In this document: positions 5,106-12,735 of the stretch, in pieces | How positions within the stretch are numbered: the stretch's first letter is position 1 | Layout of the letters: every line of letters starts with the position of its first letter | Assembly: GCA_048940645.1 (NCBI GenBank) | Contig: JBHLOI010000043.1 | Span: 1 to 31,005 of the forward strand | Source: Promethearchaeota archaeon | Lineage (GTDB): Archaea > Asgardarchaeota > Lokiarchaeia > Sigyniarchaeales > SOKP01 | Reading direction: 5' to 3' | Length of the DNA stretch: 31,005 nucleotides | Made by a program: the position numbers and the translations under genes | Notes under the pieces: model-generated | The model's database searches: none | The model's input: the letters and a program-made list of their open reading frames with translations, nothing else | Told to the model about the DNA's origin: nothing

Positions 5106-5771
5106 TTATTTTTTCAACAAGATTATCTGAAAAAAGCTTAGGAATTTTTTAATGGGAATTTGTTTCAATATTTCAAAACCAGATTTTTTTAATTCTTTCA
5201 ATATATTTCTCTGCATTTCGAATGAATGGGAAGTCAATTTTTCAATAAAACCCAAATAGAAGTTATAGAGAATTCGCAGTGAAATTTTTGAAGGCTCATG
5301 ATGTTCAAAAATTAAACAGAATCCTCCTCCTTTCAATATTCGATAGATTTCAGAAAGAACGTTGAGTCTTTGATTCTTATCCATTTCATGCAAAGCTGCA
5401 GAAATTATGACATGATTAAAAGAATCATTTGAAAATTTTAGTTCATTAGCATCCATTAGTGCAAATTTTAAATTGGGATATTTATTCTTTTTCTGTGCCT
5501 TGGCGATCTGACCAAATGATAAATCAACTCCTATTATTTTACATTCTCTATAAATCAAGCTTGTGATTAAGACTGTAAGCGTACCAGTTCCACAGCATAG
5601 ATCTAATATACGATCTTTTCTTTTAATATATGGAGCCAAACTGTTAAAAACACTAGCTCGTAGTATTTTTTCCCCTGATGGGGTTAACCCAATCTTTAAT
5701 CCAATATCATAAAACTTGGAAATAAATAAATTATATGCTTTTTTATAACGTTTTGATTGATATTCCGTCAT
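5106..5771 (-). CDS. class I SAM-dependent methyltransferase (UbiE/MenG-like)
   Basis: Motif I ILDLCCGTG, followed by GVDLS, MDANEL, SAALHEM and EIYRILKGGG. Confidence 0.9.
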   Translation of the reverse strand: MTEYQSKRYKKAYNLFISKFYDIGLKIGLTPSGEKILRASVFNSLAPYIKRKDRILDLCCGTGTLTVLITSLIYRECKIIGVDLSFGQIAKAQKKNKYPNLKFALMDANELKFSNDSFNHVIISAALHEMDKNQRLNVLSEIYRILKGGGFCLIFEHHEPSKISLRILYNFYLGFIEKLTSHSFEMQRNILKELKKSGFEILKQIPIKKFLSFFQIILLKK

Positions 5772-5874
5772 CTCAAGGCAAAATTTTATTTTAAAATTTC
5801 TAATAGTAAATAAAAAGCAGAAATAAATATTGAAAAAAACTCTGTTTATTTATTATAAACAAAAGATACGAAAA

Positions 5875-6561
5875 ATGGAAAGAAACCAAAAACTAACTGA
5901 GGATTTAACTAAATTCTCAAGTAAAAAGGGTATTGACATTATTGGTTTTGCAAATCCTAAGGAATATGAAAGGTTTAAACTTGAGAACAGGCCAGAAACT
6001 TACATGAAAGACGTAAGTACGGTAATTGTAATTGGAATATATTTATATGACATTATACTCGATGCTTGGAGCGAAGATCAAACTACTGGTAAGAGCTTTC
6101 ATTATTTAGATTCAATACTGGAGAGTCGAGCCCATTATTTAAAGGATTTTCTATTAAAAAAATCATATAAATCCAAGATTATGCCCTATACCCCTGGAAT
6201 TTTTTTGAAAGATTCAGCAGCTTTAGCTGGGCTAGGCCCTATAGGAAAGAACAACTTATTTATAAGTATGAAATTTGGCTCTCAAGTTAGGTTAAGGGCA
6301 ATCATTACAGAAGCGCCATTGGTGACAGGAAACCCTATTAAAGAGAGTAAATACTGCGAAGAATGTGAAATTTGTATTGCAAAGTGCCCAGCTAAAGCAT
6401 TAAGCTCAGAGGGTTATAATAAGCAAGCATGCTTGTCTTATAATTTAGCAAATCTGAGGAAACTTTCGGATTATACTTCAATTTGGTGTAATATTTGCAT
6501 AGAAACTTGTCCTTACACTAAAAAAAGTCAAGAAAGTAATCTTAAAGGATATTTTGATTGA
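5875..6561 (+). CDS. QueG/reductive-dehalogenase-like 2x[4Fe-4S] protein (epoxyqueuosine reductase-like)
   Basis: GIDIIGFA, KDSAALAGLGPIGKNNLFIS..FGSQVRLRAIITEAPL, CEECEICIAKCP and CNICIETCP. ATG 5875 is preferred over TTG 5830. Confidence 0.85.
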   Translation: MERNQKLTEDLTKFSSKKGIDIIGFANPKEYERFKLENRPETYMKDVSTVIVIGIYLYDIILDAWSEDQTTGKSFHYLDSILESRAHYLKDFLLKKSYKSKIMPYTPGIFLKDSAALAGLGPIGKNNLFISMKFGSQVRLRAIITEAPLVTGNPIKESKYCEECEICIAKCPAKALSSEGYNKQACLSYNLANLRKLSDYTSIWCNICIETCPYTKKSQESNLKGYFD

Positions 6562-6671
6562 TATAATCAAATATTTGCTTTTTATTACCTATAGTTTAAA
6601 ATTAAAAATTTTAAATAAGACAAAATGGATATAAAATTTAAAATAGACTTTTTCCAAATGTGATTGTAATA

Positions 6672-7427
6672 ATGAGTGAAGAAAAACCGAAACCAACAAC
6701 ATCAAAACAAAATAAACTTGTAGGTCCAGGGTTAGGTTTAATTATCATGGGAGTAGCTTATCTTGTTTGGTGGTTATCGTTTATTGAATATGCAATAAAT
6801 GACCCAAGATGGACACATAATATTGCATATGCTATTATTATAATGAATGTGGGTTTAGCCTGGTATCATAAAACTCCATTATCAAGAACTATTTCGATGA
6901 TCCAATCCTTCATGTTACCTATAACAGCGAGCGGATCATTTAATACTGTAATTTGTACTATTATATCTTCAATAATACTTGGGATTTGGATAATTATTGT
7001 AGTGGTTGAAAAGACTAAAAGAAAGAAATATTTTGAAAAAAACTTAAGTAAAAGAGGAAATAATTGGCTGAATATGCATACATTAATAATTGCATGGATA
7101 TTAGTAGGACACATGGGTTTAATGTTCTTCATCGTTAGACTGCCTTTAGAAGCTCAACTATATAGTTATGGTGAAGGTGCAGGGTATCTCATCAATTTAC
7201 CCCCGGAGAGTCTTGAATTCGCTACTTGGGCTTTTAATATTGGGTTATTTGTTCTAATTTCCGTAATCCTATGGGAGCAATACAAGATGGGATATAATAT
7301 ACAAAATAACCCTTGGCCAAGAAAAAGCTTTTGGGTTGTAATTATTACAATGGGAGCTTCCTTAATTGCTTTAGCCATTCAAAGTGTTACAGTGGGTATG
7401 GATTGGGTAAGTTTGGTCTACGGGTAA
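6672..7427 (+). CDS. hypothetical integral membrane protein (~6-7 TM)
   Basis: Multiple hydrophobic helices with embedded His/Trp (RWTHNIAY, LNMHTL, LVGHMG). Co-oriented with the downstream cluster. Confidence 0.8.
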   Translation: MSEEKPKPTTSKQNKLVGPGLGLIIMGVAYLVWWLSFIEYAINDPRWTHNIAYAIIIMNVGLAWYHKTPLSRTISMIQSFMLPITASGSFNTVICTIISSIILGIWIIIVVVEKTKRKKYFEKNLSKRGNNWLNMHTLIIAWILVGHMGLMFFIVRLPLEAQLYSYGEGAGYLINLPPESLEFATWAFNIGLFVLISVILWEQYKMGYNIQNNPWPRKSFWVVIITMGASLIALAIQSVTVGMDWVSLVYG

Positions 7428-7483
7428 TTTTTTTATGAATTGAAAATTTAAATCAAATAATTAAGGAGATTAACGATATTTCT

Positions 7484-8569
7484 ATGAGAAGAGAGGATGT
7501 TCCATTAAAACACGCGGGAATGGCTTCTGAATTTGAGCTTCAAAAGCAATATTTTGACGAGGGTAAAATCTTTATCCTTCAAATTGAATCCACGTTAAGA
7601 TGTACTCAGTTATGTGATTATTGTTATGCAGGAAGCACACCAGATAGTCCACAGGGAATGGATTCTGAAAAGATCAAAGAATTATTAGATGCAGCATCCA
7701 AAATAGGAGTCTGTATGATTGATTGGTTGGGAGGAGATCCTTTCTTAAGAAAGGATTGGTATGAACTATGCAAATATGCTTCAAACTTACAATTAATCAA
7801 TAACATTTGGACTAGTGGTATTCCTTTAGCAAATCCAAAGATAGCAAAAAAAGCAGTTGAGGTAACTGAGGGAGGCTTTATCTCAACACATCTAGATACT
7901 CTTAATCCAGAACTATATAGTATTTTACATGGAGGTGAAGGATGTGCTGGGGATTCTAATAATATACAACTAATTCTAAATGGAATCAAAAATGTTCTAT
8001 CTGAAGGAAAAAATCCTGGAGCAATGGTAAATTGCATTACGTACACATCTCCCTTAGCAGATGGGGATGCCAAAAGGATGATTTCATATATGCAAGAAGA
8101 GTTTAGCATTAAGACTTGTTTAACCTTATTTAACCCTGTCATATACCGTAATGCTAATACTTCTTGGGAACCTAATATTAGTCAAATTGAGGATGCATTT
8201 AGTTATAGGGACAATATGAATTATCCCGACGATCCTTCATGTGGATCTATGGATGTATCAAAGTTTTACTGTGGTACGGTAATTTGTATAACTTATGATG
8301 GTTGGATTACTCCTTGCTCAGTTATTCGAACCCAAGAATTTGGCAATGTGAACAATGAGAAACTTGACGTGTTAATTGAAAAACATAAAAAAAGACTTCT
8401 TTTTTTAGATTTTCGAGATCCTTCTAAACTTCCAGGGAATTGTGGAAATTGTATTAATAATTCATTTTGTTTTGGATGTAGAAGTAGTGCTTACTATTAT
8501 GAAGGAGATATATTGGCAACTGATCCCAAATGTTACCAATTCACCCCCAATCTCATTAAGGAAGAATAG
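7484..8569 (+). CDS. radical SAM protein with SPASM domain
   Basis: CTQLCDYC (CxxxCxxC) and WLGGDP. SPASM cysteines in CGTVIC..DGWITPCSV..GNV and CGNCINNSFCFGCR..DPKC. Confidence 0.92.
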   Translation: MRREDVPLKHAGMASEFELQKQYFDEGKIFILQIESTLRCTQLCDYCYAGSTPDSPQGMDSEKIKELLDAASKIGVCMIDWLGGDPFLRKDWYELCKYASNLQLINNIWTSGIPLANPKIAKKAVEVTEGGFISTHLDTLNPELYSILHGGEGCAGDSNNIQLILNGIKNVLSEGKNPGAMVNCITYTSPLADGDAKRMISYMQEEFSIKTCLTLFNPVIYRNANTSWEPNISQIEDAFSYRDNMNYPDDPSCGSMDVSKFYCGTVICITYDGWITPCSVIRTQEFGNVNNEKLDVLIEKHKKRLLFLDFRDPSKLPGNCGNCINNSFCFGCRSSAYYYEGDILATDPKCYQFTPNLIKEE

Positions 8570-8620
8570 TGTTGGTTAACCTTAAATCTATTATATTATA
8601 ATCAATCAAAAGTATAGAGA

Positions 8621-9424
8621 ATGAATAAAAAAAAGTATGATTTTTCGGTATGGGATGTAAGCCAAGTTTATGCAGGTCCTGGTGGTAAGCTTTGGGAACT
8701 GCTTATGGGTGAACAAATCCATGTCGGAGGAGCAGAACAGACAGACATTTTAGCAAAGAAAGTTGGACTTGACAAAGAAAGGGATATCTACTTATTAGAT
8801 ATTTGTTCGGCTCTGGGTGGTCCAGCGAGACATTTGGCAGAAAAATATGGAACCAGAGTCGTTGGATTAGATATAACTCCTGAAATGATCGAGGAAGCTA
8901 AAGAAAGAACATTAGGAAAACCTTATGTGGATAAGATCGAATATAGGCTTGGATCCGCTTTAGATGTACCTGCTCACGCAAACACTTTTGATGTGGTGTG
9001 GGGTCAAGATGCTTGGTGTTACATTAGAGACAAACCAAGACTTATAGAGGAAACTAATAGAGTTTTAAAATCTGGAGGTGTTCTAGCATTTACAGATTGG
9101 ATTTGGGGATCAATTGATGCTCCTGATACTGATGCTGATTATCTGATGGAATTCATGGTGTTCCCTGATATGCAAACTCTAGATGGATATGCTAAGCTTA
9201 TTGAAGATGCTGGACTGATACTTATAGAAAACAATGACTTGGGAGAAGATTTTGCTAATCATATGGATAGTTATATCTCAATTCTCAACACAAATAAACA
9301 GAATATAATTGAAGGATTCGGAGAAGAGTTATATGTTGAAGCAGAGAAAGGAGTAATGGCTTGGCAGAAAGCGGTTCATAATAAATGGGTAAGCAGAGGT
9401 ATGTGGATTGCTAAAAAGCCTTAG
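8621..9424 (+). CDS. class I SAM methyltransferase, sarcosine/dimethylglycine N-methyltransferase-like
   Basis: MGEQIHVGG (cf. GEDIHIG of SDMT), LLDICSALGGPARHLA, GLDIT, FDVVWGQDAWCY and RVLKSGGVLAFTD. Confidence 0.85.
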   Translation: MNKKKYDFSVWDVSQVYAGPGGKLWELLMGEQIHVGGAEQTDILAKKVGLDKERDIYLLDICSALGGPARHLAEKYGTRVVGLDITPEMIEEAKERTLGKPYVDKIEYRLGSALDVPAHANTFDVVWGQDAWCYIRDKPRLIEETNRVLKSGGVLAFTDWIWGSIDAPDTDADYLMEFMVFPDMQTLDGYAKLIEDAGLILIENNDLGEDFANHMDSYISILNTNKQNIIEGFGEELYVEAEKGVMAWQKAVHNKWVSRGMWIAKKP

Positions 9425-9460
9425 TTTTATTTAATAAAGTTATTTAATTAGTTTTTTAAT

Positions 9461-10264
9461 ATGAAATCTGCATTAGTTATTTTTACAAAGGTTCCAATTC
9501 CAGGATTAGTAAAAACACGATTAACCCAAAATACGTGTTTAACTGAATTAGATTCAGCTAAAATTGCTGAAGCCATGCTCAAAGACACAATTAGTATAGC
9601 TTCCAAAACAAATGCTGATACAATACAAGTTGGTTACTTTCCTAATGAGAAGGCCGGAAAATTACATGAAATTGCTGATTCTGTTAGAAGTGATGGATAT
9701 TTAAGTAAACCTATTGGCTTTATTCCCCAGAACGGTTCAAATTTTGATCAACGATTTGGATCAATTGTAAAGGAATCTTTTGAAAAGAAAATAGATTTGT
9801 TAGTTGTTTTAGGTGCTGATTTACCATTTTTAGATCCTAAAATAATTAACCTAGCTTTAGCATACTTAGTAAAAAAAACTAATGAGAATCCTATAATTAT
9901 CGGACTTTCTACTGGGGGTGGTATATATCTCATTGGAATTACTAAAGATTTCAATCCAAGTTGGTTTTCAGAATACCATTTATTCAGTGGTAGATTAGAA
10001 TTATCTGAATTTGCAAACTTCTGTAGAGATAATAAATTTCCGTTGATTTCCCTCCCTCCATATGGAGATATTGATATTGAAGAAGATTTAGTCACCTTAA
10101 TTTCATATATTAGAGCACTTAAAAACTCAGAAAAAACCATTGGGTTTTATTTTCCTCATTACACTGCCAAGATCATAGAAGAATTAAACCTATACATCGT
10201 AGAAGAGCAAGATCAAACCCGTAGGCGAAAAATAGCAAAAAAGAACGATAAAAAGTTATTATGA
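9461..10264 (+). CDS. TIGR04282/DUF2064 family transferase (CofC-like; arsenosugar-locus-associated)
   Basis: LVIFTKVPIPGLVKTRL, QNGSNFDQRF, VVLGADLP, GGGIYLIG and LPPYGDIDIEEDL. Confidence 0.88.
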   Translation: MKSALVIFTKVPIPGLVKTRLTQNTCLTELDSAKIAEAMLKDTISIASKTNADTIQVGYFPNEKAGKLHEIADSVRSDGYLSKPIGFIPQNGSNFDQRFGSIVKESFEKKIDLLVVLGADLPFLDPKIINLALAYLVKKTNENPIIIGLSTGGGIYLIGITKDFNPSWFSEYHLFSGRLELSEFANFCRDNKFPLISLPPYGDIDIEEDLVTLISYIRALKNSEKTIGFYFPHYTAKIIEELNLYIVEEQDQTRRRKIAKKNDKKLL

Positions 10265-11034
10265 TTGTTAGTATAATCATCATTACCTTGAATGAAGCAG
10301 AAAATATTGAATTAACCATTAAAAAAGCTCGCTTAGCGGCACATCTTCCCTCTGGAAAAACAATTCCTATTGAAATCATCATCAGTGATGGTGGATCCAC
10401 GGACGGAACTCTCGAAATAGCTCAAAAATTAGCAGATAAAGTAATCATTGGACCAAGCGGAAGATATCTTCAGTTAAATGCAGGTGCTATGCACGCAAAG
10501 GGAGAGATTCTACTATTTTTGCATGCTGATACAATTTTACCAGAAGGCGCAATAATACGAATTCTTTATAGATTAAGAGATCCCAACGCCATTGGAGGAG
10601 GTTTTAAAAAAGATTGGAATTGGAATCCTACGGTTAAACGATCATCTTTCCTTAAATTTGCCAACTTCTGGTGGCAAGGAATAGGTAACTGGCTTGTGAG
10701 ATTGCTAAGAACATTTCCAGGAGATAATGCAATCTTTGTCCGAAAATCTGTTTTTGAAAAAATTAAAGGATTTCAATCTTTATGGATATGTGAAGATTTT
10801 GATTTTTCGCGGCGATTAAGAAAGTATGGAAAGAAAAGTTTTATATATATACATTCAACGGTGCTTACATCACCTAGACGATATGAAAAATACGGATTTT
10901 TTTATGTAAATGTAATATGGTTTTGGATATATTGGCTGTGGCGTTTAGGTATGTCCCAAGAACGCCTTAAAGTTAAATTTAAAAAATACTTAATATTCCC
11001 AGAGACAAGGAAGAGGAAATTTCTCAGATTTTAA
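10261..11034 (+). CDS. TIGR04283 family GT2 glycosyltransferase (arsenosugar-locus-associated)
   Basis: SIIIITLNEAENI, DGGSTDGT, GRYLQLNAGA, LLFLHADT, GDNAIFVRK, EDFDFSRRL and TSPRRY. ATGA overlap with the upstream gene. Confidence 0.9.
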   Translation: MIVSIIIITLNEAENIELTIKKARLAAHLPSGKTIPIEIIISDGGSTDGTLEIAQKLADKVIIGPSGRYLQLNAGAMHAKGEILLFLHADTILPEGAIIRILYRLRDPNAIGGGFKKDWNWNPTVKRSSFLKFANFWWQGIGNWLVRLLRTFPGDNAIFVRKSVFEKIKGFQSLWICEDFDFSRRLRKYGKKSFIYIHSTVLTSPRRYEKYGFFYVNVIWFWIYWLWRLGMSQERLKVKFKKYLIFPETRKRKFLRF

Positions 11035-11100
11035 TATAAAAACCTAGGATAATAGCAAAATTAATAAAAAAAAAGAAAAACTCAGTTTATTAAATCTATT

Positions 11101-11583
11101 TTACTTTATCAATGCAATTGATTCTTCGCAAAAATCATCTTGTCCGGTTCTGAATTTTTCAAGCTCATATTGTAAATTAGGGCTTAATTCTTTAACTAAA
11201 CTATTCATAAATGGTATAGCACTCCTCCGACAAAATGGTTCTGGGTCTAATCCCATCATTTTGGCAGCTTCATACACAGGGCATTTCCCTACTTTTATGC
11301 TAACTTTCTCCTCACTCTCTTTAAGAATCTCTGTATCAATACCAAATCCTTTAATAGCGCCTGAAGCTAAAAATGAAGCATTTTTTGGATTCATCTCTTT
11401 AATTTTTTCCCGTCTTGCTTGGCTTCTTGACATCTTACCTTGTAAAGCTCCCATGGTTTGACATGTTTCTTCAATCATATTATACGCTTTCTCCTCTCCA
11501 ATTTCCTTTACCACCGTACCTATAAAAGCATCTAATAAAATAAAAGCATTTTTCGCTCCATTAAACGTATCCTCAAGTGGAAT
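11101..11583 (-). CDS. ATC-hydrolase/V4R-like fold protein, probably initiating at ATT
   Basis: VGKCPVYEAA..C..DDFCEE cysteine pattern. The frame is open upstream of GTG 11514 (PLEDTFNGAKNAFILLDAFIGTV), and GAGGT lies 7 nt upstream of ATT 11583. Confidence 0.75.
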   Translation of the reverse strand: MPLEDTFNGAKNAFILLDAFIGTVVKEIGEEKAYNMIEETCQTMGALQGKMSRSQARREKIKEMNPKNASFLASGAIKGFGIDTEILKESEEKVSIKVGKCPVYEAAKMMGLDPEPFCRRSAIPFMNSLVKELSPNLQYELEKFRTGQDDFCEESIALIK

Positions 11584-11590
11584 TTTTATT

Positions 11591-11595
11591 ACCTC
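11591..11595 (-). promoter_or_regulatory. Shine-Dalgarno-like GAGGT
   Basis: GAGGT-AATAAAA-ATT on the minus strand. Similar motifs precede ATGs at 16978, 26138 and 30742. Confidence 0.55.
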
Positions 11596-11817
11596 TTTAA
11601 ACTATATATATTATTTTTAATACAATTTTGTAAATAATAAACTTACATTTTAGTATAAAAACCTTCTCTTAACAGAGAATTTCCAAGGAAGGAATAAATA
11701 TAGCAATTTAGTCAAATAAATAATTAAAAAAGAAGGTTTCCCAGAAAAATCTAGATAGAAATTGTTCTCCATTAATCTATGATTAATAATAAATCATATC
11801 CAAGAATAATATTCATA

Positions 11818-12735
11818 ATGAAACCCATTACTGCAAATAATCTAATCAGAATTATTTCCATGGGATTATCAATCTTACAATCAAGAATAATAAAAGTTCC
11901 GTTATATGTGAATTATGATATAACTTGGAAGTGTAACTTAAAATGTAAGCATTGTTATTTTTCCGCATCATCCATGGAATTAAAAAATAAAAGAATAGAA
12001 TTATCGCAGGAAGAATGGACCAAAGTTTTTAAATATCATAGAGATTTAGGAACAAATACAGCAGTTTTAACTGGTGGAGAACCTACTTTAAGAATAGATG
12101 TTATAAAAGAAGCGATTAAGATTTTCCCCTCAGTTCAAGTTGTTTCAAATGGAGTTATAAAATTGCCTCCATTTAATGGATATAAACAACCAAAATACTG
12201 GGTAAGTATAGATGGTACTGAGGAAACTCATAATAAGATAAGAGGTGTGAAGGTTTTTGACAAAGTTTTACGGACTATTCAGGTAAGCAATCCGGTGGTT
12301 GCAACAACCATCATGGCCTTAAATTATAATGAAATTAATGATATTGTTAAAATTGCCTATGAGAATGGTGCTTCTGGATTAGCTTTCTTAATGTATACTG
12401 GTTATCCTAACGACCCCCTTTTATTGAAAGGAAATATCTTAAAAAAAACAATTGTAACCGTGTTAAGAGTTATGCGTGAATATGGAGATTTTATTTTTTA
12501 TTCCAAAAAAATGCTAGAAGCATATATGTCAAAAGAATTTGTACCATATTGTGTGTTTAAATCCGGTGAAATAAAGAGTTATTATCCTGATGGAACGCAA
12601 AAGTTTTGTGTCATGGGAAATTCATCACTCTTATGTTCCAATTGTGGTTGTATTATACCAATTACTGCTTATTCCATATTTAGAAAATTTGATTCTGAAA
12701 CAGTTTTTAAATTGAAAAAATTGTTTAATTTTTAA
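11818..12735 (+). CDS. radical SAM protein with Cys-rich C-terminal extension
   Basis: CNLKCKHC, LTGGEP, VSNG, WVSIDG..HNKIRG and C-terminal CVF..CVMG..CSNCGC. Start is 11818 or 11779. Confidence 0.88.
   Translation: MKPITANNLIRIISMGLSILQSRIIKVPLYVNYDITWKCNLKCKHCYFSASSMELKNKRIELSQEEWTKVFKYHRDLGTNTAVLTGGEPTLRIDVIKEAIKIFPSVQVVSNGVIKLPPFNGYKQPKYWVSIDGTEETHNKIRGVKVFDKVLRTIQVSNPVVATTIMALNYNEINDIVKIAYENGASGLAFLMYTGYPNDPLLLKGNILKKTIVTVLRVMREYGDFIFYSKKMLEAYMSKEFVPYCVFKSGEIKSYYPDGTQKFCVMGNSSLLCSNCGCIIPITAYSIFRKFDSETVFKLKKLFNF

Follow-up and report, generated by a model that had tools for sequence, protein, structure and literature searches.

A gene cassette of Asgard archaea that probably joins an arsenosugar-type transferase back end to a substitute radical SAM-methyltransferase front end

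INTRODUCTION

The closest described relatives of the gene cassette reported here are the arsenosugar loci, whose radical S-adenosylmethionine (SAM) enzyme ArsS adenosylates dimethylarsenite in vitro (Cheng et al. 2021, cited in PMC12159101). The cassette lies in a stretch of 31,005 nucleotides from a Promethearchaeota archaeon (assembly GCA_048940645.1, contig JBHLOI010000043.1, positions 1 to 31,005), and this whole stretch is referred to below as the window. Its seven open reading frames (ORFs) were named MT0, QueG/reductive dehalogenase (RDH)-like protein, Memb, rSAM1, MT1, T282 and T283. An earlier note on the window described the locus as an arsenosugar-type cluster with substituted core enzymes. 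In the literature library that was searched, full-text queries on TIGR04282, TIGR04283, DUF2064 and arsenosugar/ArsS turned up no description of the cassette and no work on its function or on that of the transferase pair T282/T283. Here we compare the locus with ArsS loci and propose, with a probability of about 0.6, that it is a modular variant of the ArsS/TIGR04282/TIGR04283 system, in which rSAM1 and MT1 form a substitute front end that supplies a shared back end.

RESULTS

A back end shared with Asgard ArsS loci

All seven ORFs lay where the earlier note had placed them, as a co-oriented run with one divergent methyltransferase gene. The front end consists of rSAM1 (7484-8569, + strand), a radical SAM protein with a C-terminal SPASM-type cysteine domain (Pfam Radical_SAM and cysteine motifs), and MT1 (8621-9424, + strand), a class I SAM methyltransferase of the PMT/SDMT type, assigned by the match of its family profile to solved structures. 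The back end comprises T282 (9461-10264, + strand), a DUF2064/TIGR04282-like protein with a CofC/MobA-type nucleotidyltransferase-like fold (NCBIfam and Pfam DUF2064), T283 (10261-11034, + strand), a TIGR04283-like family-2 glycosyltransferase (GT2; NCBIfam and Pfam Glycos_transf_2), and Memb (6660-7427, + strand; the start may be the ATG at 6672), a membrane protein of an unnamed family with about seven transmembrane segments, as judged from an AlphaFold2 (AF2) model. The genes of T282 and T283 overlap by 4 bases, ATGA at 10261-10264, with the ATG at 10261-10263 and the TGA at 10262-10264. T283 is therefore predicted to be translationally coupled to T282, in agreement with the earlier note. 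The other intergenic gaps within the co-oriented run were 36-98 bp.

ArsS was not found in the host genome (89.6% complete), where the best score to TIGR04167 was 46.2 bits against a cut-off of 300, nor in the 41 other genomes of the genus that were searched (no match at E ≤ 1e-30). Across the phylum, ArsS scored above the cut-off in 16 of 400 genomes, all of them in families other than those bearing rSAM1. In the true Asgard ArsS loci, ArsS (398 bits) was accompanied by a TIGR04282 protein (184.6 bits), a T283-like GT2 (112.9 bits) and a Memb homologue that was 42-47% identical to the Memb of the window. This back end of Memb, TIGR04282 and a TIGR04283-like GT2, common to the true Asgard ArsS loci, is new here and bears out the description of the locus as an arsenosugar-type cluster with substituted core enzymes.

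A census of metagenome contigs anchored on Memb gave 31 loci with rSAM1 beside Memb and 9 loci with ArsS beside Memb. MT1 was present in 13 of the 14 fully flanked rSAM1-type loci of this census and in none of the 9 ArsS-type loci. In the Memb tree, the ArsS-linked genes fell into two separate deep clades, among or beside the rSAM1-linked ones, which indicates at least two front-end swaps. Memb is a core member of the back end, not a bystander, and rSAM1 is the front-end enzyme, occupying the position of ArsS in canonical loci. From these sequence comparisons, ArsS on the one hand and rSAM1 with MT1 on the other seem to serve a single back end as alternative front ends.

A third type of cassette was observed in another genome of the same genus (locus L035 of genome G024, 7205-12303). 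It contains a UbiE/ArsM-like methyltransferase and a GeoRSP-like radical SAM/SPASM protein, together with TIGR04282 (186 bits), a T283-like GT2, Memb and a histidine-phosphatase-family protein.

Distribution and conservation of the cassette

A profile search with rSAM1 orthologues over contigs from one genome per species yielded 80 loci, 74 of them with enough sequence and 48 fully flanked on both sides (42 archaeal). They came from Asgard archaea (Loki, Hod and Heimdall types), peat Halobacteriota, Methanoperedens, Methanoregula, Thermoplasmata, Bathyarchaeia, Chlorobiaceae and Chloroflexia. MT1 adjoined rSAM1 in 72 of the 74 loci, covering at least eight lineages, and the two proteins were encoded by a single ORF in two lineages (L054, 639 amino acids; L041, 628 amino acids). 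MT1 is thus the obligate partner of rSAM1. Among the 48 fully flanked loci, T282 was found in 31, a T283-like GT2 in 28 and Memb in 29, nearly all archaeal; the corresponding counts for the 42 archaeal loci were 30, 28 and 29. Other GT2 genes were present in loci of peat Halobacteriota and of the Hod/Heimdall types in which no T283-like gene was detected. In archaea, the rSAM1-MT1 pair is usually accompanied by both transferases and Memb, and the earlier note's linkage of the radical SAM protein and the methyltransferase to the transferase pair is conserved there. The cassette of Bathyarchaeia additionally includes a GT87-like GT-C enzyme and further GT2 genes, as would suit a route via lipid-carried sugars.

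Within the host genus, the gene order was matched in 9 of 36 sampled genomes, with protein identities of 46-94%, and the cassette is accordingly accessory within the genus. The cassette was present in 11 of 42 genomes of the genus. The names borne by close homologues and loci, such as Promethearchaeota, Hermod-, Thor- and Hodarchaeota, agree with an Asgard origin of the contig.

Some of the loci carry further neighbors. In Hod/Heimdall-type loci (L067, 76-1143; L066, 6442-6945), a YeeE/YedE-type 'sulphur transport' protein and a DoxX-family protein are encoded beside MT1-rSAM1, and these neighbors may hint at a sulfur or selenium substrate. Three Methanoperedens loci have a class-III aminotransferase gene downstream, followed by three further conserved genes, whose sizes would suit a neighboring haem operon, although this is a guess.

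The radical SAM enzyme rSAM1

The cluster motif C40-x3-C44-x2-C47 of rSAM1 was invariant, as were eight C-terminal cysteines (C263, C268, C278, C320, C323, C329, C332 and C350). rSAM1 therefore has both the CX3CX2C motif and the C-terminal multi-cysteine motif of radical SAM/SPASM proteins. Its C-terminus aligned with the SPASM ends of TIGR04053 and AhbD, and PF13186 is recorded on orthologues. The score to ArsS (TIGR04167) was 32.5 bits against the cut-off of 300, so the earlier note was right to assign a SPASM and not an ArsS architecture. The best curated family was TIGR04053 (83 bits; cut-off 395), and MftC scored 45.3 bits (cut-off 265). An RRE or other peptide-binding domain was not found in rSAM1, in which 39 residues precede the cluster motif, and a conserved 'HAGMAS' motif was seen in the N-terminal part. 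The AF2 model had a pLDDT of 76, and its nearest folds were BlsE, SuiB, CteB, SkfB, MoaA, PqqE and anSME, with E values of 1e-10 to 1e-8.

The methyltransferase MT1

The family profile of MT1 aligned over its full length to the structures 5wp5, 2o57 and 3uj6, with E values of 1e-31 to 1e-27, and MT1 also resembled 6uv6, a D-glucose O-methyltransferase. MT1 scored 45.8 bits to the ArsM model NF008823 (cut-off 263), in line with the claim that the methyltransferase of the cassette is not ArsM-like, and 88 bits to the NCBIfam SDMT model (cut-off 550). In the invariant motif VWGQDAWCY, a tyrosine takes the place of the catalytic histidine of PMT. Furthermore, the stretch aligned to 'YIKQRGY' of PMT, which we take to be the phosphate-binding region, reads as the hydrophobic 'FMVFPY' in MT1, and aromatic residues are frequent at the conserved positions. 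The cysteines C62 and C133 were both invariant, one in motif I at the end of beta-strand 1 and the other before the tyrosine, just after beta-strand 4. In the class I methyltransferase fold, both positions are presumably close to the methyl group of SAM. MT1 is predicted to work like the PMT/SDMT class and is not a member of it, since the histidine is replaced by tyrosine and the binding segment is hydrophobic. The altered histidine and binding segment, together with the extra invariant cysteines, suggest that the substrate is probably neither phosphoethanolamine nor glycine.

The transferases and the membrane protein

T282 had TIGR04282 as its top family match, at 90.4 bits against a cut-off of 134 and with the full model covered, followed by CofC at 26.9 bits. 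Its single solved relative was 3cgx, a 'putative nucleotide-diphospho-sugar transferase'. T283 covered the full TIGR04283 model with a borderline score of 180.2 bits against a cut-off of 182. The assignment of the pair in the earlier note thus stood as to the best matching families, but not as to curated membership, and T282 and T283 are best described as apparent relatives of TIGR04282 and TIGR04283, not certified members.

Memb had no significant family in Pfam or NCBIfam; its sole match was DUF2339 (18.3 bits; cut-off 33.6). Seven long helices were predicted in the AF2 model (pLDDT 86, pTM 0.83). No usable fold match was obtained, either with Foldseek against the PDB (best E of 0.2) or in a wide VIA-align search (best Z of 6.8), in which the matches were generic helical bundles and G-protein-coupled receptors; this does not show a new fold. 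A protein atlas likewise gave only chance-level matches to Memb (0.80). Among 24 sequences, the residues D44, R46, W47, H49, N50, E113, W132, H136, H147, R156, P177, E179, T185 and E202 were invariant (numbering from the ATG at 6672).

Memb homologues also occur elsewhere. Four loci (L254, L252, L268 and L290) have a Memb homologue with no radical SAM or transferase partner; in L254 (5992-8189), Memb is convergent with a gene for a flavin amine-oxidase-family protein of 484 amino acids. In Bathyarchaeia (L075, 7468-8634; also L088, L101 and L106), a protein of 388 amino acids has an N-terminal ferritin-like/rubrerythrin domain fused to a Memb-like domain, and genes for a GT87-like GT-C enzyme and a B12-binding radical SAM protein are located nearby.

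Front ends in green sulfur bacteria

We searched 138 genomes of the green sulfur bacteria (Chlorobia). TIGR04283 scored above the cut-off in 125 of them, and the TIGR04282/TIGR04283 pair was near-universal. ArsS was found in 81 genomes and rSAM1 in 36; 5 genomes had both, compared with about 21 expected under independence. No arsenosugar-type ArsM scored above the cut-off in the 10 Chlorobia genomes tested. These counts weaken the earlier statement that TIGR04282 and TIGR04283 usually accompany ArsS and ArsM. In the loci examined, the local order was a crtQ/HpnE-like FAD desaturase gene, ArsS or nothing, T282, T283 and the chlorosome gene csmH. The ArsS slot of about 1 kb was either filled or cleanly empty (e.g., L133 of genome G061, 7175-10761; L136-L211), and in one genome rSAM1-MT1 stood directly beside T282-T283. 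On the tree of T282 and T283, at least 10 changes were required for ArsS and at least 13 for rSAM1. The complementarity of ArsS and rSAM1 in Chlorobia is only suggestive of exchange.

Relation to arsenic

The host genome encodes one canonical ArsM (356 bits), on another contig and unlinked to the cassette. The gene belongs to locus L135 (contig C6), with genes at 6651-6965 and 6946-7878, where ArsM overlaps the end of a small AbrB-type gene. The AbrB-type gene passes the model 'HgcAB-associated protein HgcC' (101 bits against a cut-off of 70), which hints at a locus for metal or metalloid methylation.

In the host genus, ArsM was found in 10 of 42 genomes and overlapped with the cassette in 4, compared with 2.6 expected. 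The earlier note had considered that canonical arsM or arsS genes elsewhere in the genome might account for the transferase pair. ArsS is not found there, as described above, and ArsM does not account for the pair, because it is unlinked and because 7 of the 11 genomes of the genus that bear the cassette gave no ArsM. In 179 related loci (1.65 Mb in total), no ArsM homologue was found at E ≤ 1e-20. Among the recurrent neighbor families of the cassette, no conserved arsenic-resistance gene was seen. A link to arsenic by way of ArsM was thus given no support by the overlap or by the 0 of 179 loci. The sole tie to arsenic is the ArsS family, and the transferase pair owes its 'arsenosugar' name to association.

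Accessory genes and surroundings

Two genes at the upstream end are lineage-specific accessories of the Loki-type cassette. MT0 (5106-5771, - strand) is a UbiE/MenG-like class I SAM methyltransferase (Pfam Methyltransf_25 and Ubie_methyltran), divergent from the operon. Its best NCBIfam scores were all below the cut-offs (UbiE, 82.5 bits; CpaM, 76 bits), with 40.5 bits to ArsM NF008823. MT0 was found in 8 of 13 fully flanked Loki-type loci versus 1 of 35 other fully flanked loci. The QueG/RDH-like Fe-S protein (5830-6561, + strand), with two [4Fe-4S] motifs and Pfam Fer4_16, was encoded in 7 of the 13 Loki-type loci and may act as a reductase. It is rejected as an equivalog of QueG, since it scored 63.4 bits to TIGR00276 (cut-off 200; model positions 52-250 of 337); the RDH score was 53.8 bits.

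Downstream of the cassette are an ATC-hydrolase-like (V4R-type) gene (11101-11514, - strand) and a second radical SAM gene that lacks a SPASM tail (11779-12735, + strand). Both are probably outside the module, because they were detected only beside one other locus, L036, which is about 90% identical. No RNA family of Rfam was found in the window.

DISCUSSION

The gene content, the family assignments, the co-conservation and the exchange between ArsS and rSAM1-MT1 are observations, from which we infer every chemical step set out here. Under the proposal that a substitute front end feeds the shared back end, the cassette probably makes an undescribed methylated sugar-like compound at the membrane. 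rSAM1 and MT1 would yield a methylated precursor derived from a nucleoside or from ribose or another sugar, in place of the 5'-deoxy-5'-dimethylarsinoyl-adenosine of ArsS. This precursor would be converted to an intermediate of the sugar-1-phosphate type, which T282 would activate to a nucleoside diphosphate (NDP) derivative. T283, as an inverting GT2, would transfer the NDP derivative to an acceptor of the glycerol-, lipid- or polyprenyl-phosphate type, and Memb would handle the lipid-linked product at the membrane. As to the methylated group, we give roughly equal weight to a soft heteroatom (As, Se or S) and to an amine or other group. The product suggested in the earlier note, with a different methylated heteroatom (As, S, Se or N), may be a sugar, an osmolyte or a lipid head group.

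Several points weigh against this proposal. The lack of overlap between ArsS and rSAM1 in Asgard archaea is not independent evidence, because the two occur in separate families. In Chlorobia, five genomes carry both, and a test corrected for kinship left 6 independent pairs, with rSAM1 opposite to ArsS in about 2.6 and the same in about 0.4, which was not significant (median sign-test p of 0.5). rSAM1-MT1 was present in two Chloroflexia genomes with no TIGR04283-like gene (best match below 70 bits), and the front end can therefore work without the back end. T282 and T283 both scored under the NCBI curated cut-offs, and the role of Memb is a guess, because it has no recognizable fold or family. 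In addition, the fold search with rSAM1 returned a flat list of SPASM/twitch proteins that did not separate small-molecule from peptide-acting relatives. SPASM enzymes usually catalyze hydrogen abstraction or oxidation and not adenosyl transfer, and the product of the front end may therefore differ chemically from that of ArsS.

An alternative is that rSAM1 and MT1 replace ArsM and ArsS in a non-orthologous way, yielding from arsenite the dimethylarsinoyl-ribosyl precursor that those enzymes make, so that the cassette would be a self-sufficient arsenosugar or arsenolipid pathway. The equivalent places of ArsS and of rSAM1-MT1 before the same back end would be expected in this case, as would their tendency toward exclusion in Chlorobia and the independence of the cassette from ArsM in 7 of 11 genomes, and C62 and C133 of MT1 would also suit it. 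However, MT1 is far below the ArsM cut-off and has N- and O-methyltransferases as its nearest relatives, the 179 loci contain no ArsM homologue, the recurrent neighbor families include no conserved arsenic-resistance gene, and we know of no SPASM enzyme that forms C-As bonds. Moreover, most of the ArsS-bearing Chlorobia tested lack ArsM, so that an arsenic role of the whole system outside cyanobacteria is itself unproven. We therefore regard this alternative as unlikely. Slightly less likely again is the tailoring of an envelope sugar, in which an rSAM1 similar to BlsE, DesII or BtrN and an O- or N-methylating MT1 would act on an NDP-sugar made by T282, and T283 and Memb would attach the product to a glycan or lipid, with no heteroatom and no equivalence to ArsS. 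Among solved folds, rSAM1 comes nearest to BlsE, an enzyme acting on a nucleoside sugar, and the matches include DesII, but the lead of BlsE over the peptide-acting SPASM enzymes is small. The resemblance of MT1 to 6uv6, the GT-C and extra GT2 genes of Bathyarchaeia, and the occurrence of rSAM1-MT1 without the transferase pair are consistent with such tailoring, which nevertheless leaves unexplained why ArsS, an adenosyl-transferring enzyme, stands repeatedly before T282, T283-like and Memb genes, and why ArsS and rSAM1 overlap so little in Chlorobia.

The weak matches of rSAM1 to PqqE, MftC and sactipeptide-maturase models, and the short name 'glyco_like_mftF' of the TIGR04283 model, recall a mycofactocin-like or other ribosomally synthesized and post-translationally modified peptide system, in which a small precursor peptide, modified by rSAM1, would go on to be methylated and glycosylated. 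We rejected this reading as very improbable, since neither a precursor gene nor an RRE domain was found: the cluster motif of rSAM1 begins at residue 40, the gaps of 36-98 bp are too small for a precursor gene, and neighborhood clustering of ORFs of at least 70 amino acids gave no conserved small ORF family, although very short peptides elsewhere are possible. A chance juxtaposition of unrelated genes has a negligible probability, because 9 further genomes of the genus, and dozens of loci in other phyla, show the same order, with tight spacing and a start/stop overlap.

Beyond the modular variant proposed here, a broader reading can be put forward tentatively. T282, T283 and Memb might be a general machine for handing over ribosyl or sugar groups, fed by ArsS, by rSAM1-MT1 or by the methyltransferase and radical SAM protein of the third cassette type, with rSAM1-MT1 making an undescribed class of methylated organo-element or onium (S, Se, As, N) ribosides or lipids. 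'Arsenosugar' would then be the label of one special case. The rSAM1-MT1 version occurs widely among anaerobic archaea and in green sulfur bacteria. The anaerobes in which the cassette is common are of global importance, namely Asgard archaea, Methanoperedens, Bathyarchaeia, Thermoplasmata and green sulfur bacteria. If the front ends are truly interchangeable, it becomes possible to test how an undescribed family of natural products or membrane lipids is made, and directly so in culturable Chlorobiaceae, which naturally carry one front end or the other. The label 'arsenosugar biosynthesis glycosyltransferase' is attached to genes that nearly all Chlorobia carry, in many cases with no ArsS and for the most part with no ArsM, and inferences on arsenic cycling drawn from these markers in metagenomes (e.g., bioRxiv 10.1101/2023.11.02.563126) may for this reason be overstated.

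Compared with the ArsS/ArsM arsenosugar pathway of the Synechocystis type, the cassette has the same scheme of a radical SAM enzyme followed by DUF2064-type and GT2-type transferases, with a SAM methyltransferase included, and it has the same membrane-protein family as the Asgard ArsS loci. However, its radical SAM enzyme is a SPASM protein that is unrelated to ArsS beyond the core, and its methyltransferase is PMT/SDMT-like, adjoins the radical SAM gene and is missing from all 9 ArsS-type loci of the census. With the PMT/SDMT enzymes (5wp5, 3uj6 and 2o57), MT1 has in common the SAM motif I and the region of the 'xxDAxxH'-type post-II motif, whereas the tyrosine in place of the catalytic histidine, the 'FMVFPY' segment and the two invariant cysteines set it apart. 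rSAM1 is similar to the SPASM/twitch enzymes, both those acting on small molecules (BlsE, MoaA, DesII and AhbD/NirJ) and those acting on proteins or peptides (anSME, SuiB, CteB and PqqE), in its CX3CX2C core, its auxiliary-cluster cysteine domain and its size, but it reaches no curated family, has no RRE domain and carries the 'HAGMAS' motif, which was not seen in them.

The methylthioxylose capping of mycobacterial lipoarabinomannan, which involves MtxS (GT2) and MtxT (GT-C), offers a further comparison. There, a 5-modified pentose derived from a SAM by-product nucleoside is loaded onto a lipid phosphate carrier by a small GT2 and passed on by a membrane transferase. Although Memb is not a recognizable GT-C enzyme, the logic of methylthioxylose capping appears, by analogy only, to match that of the cassette.

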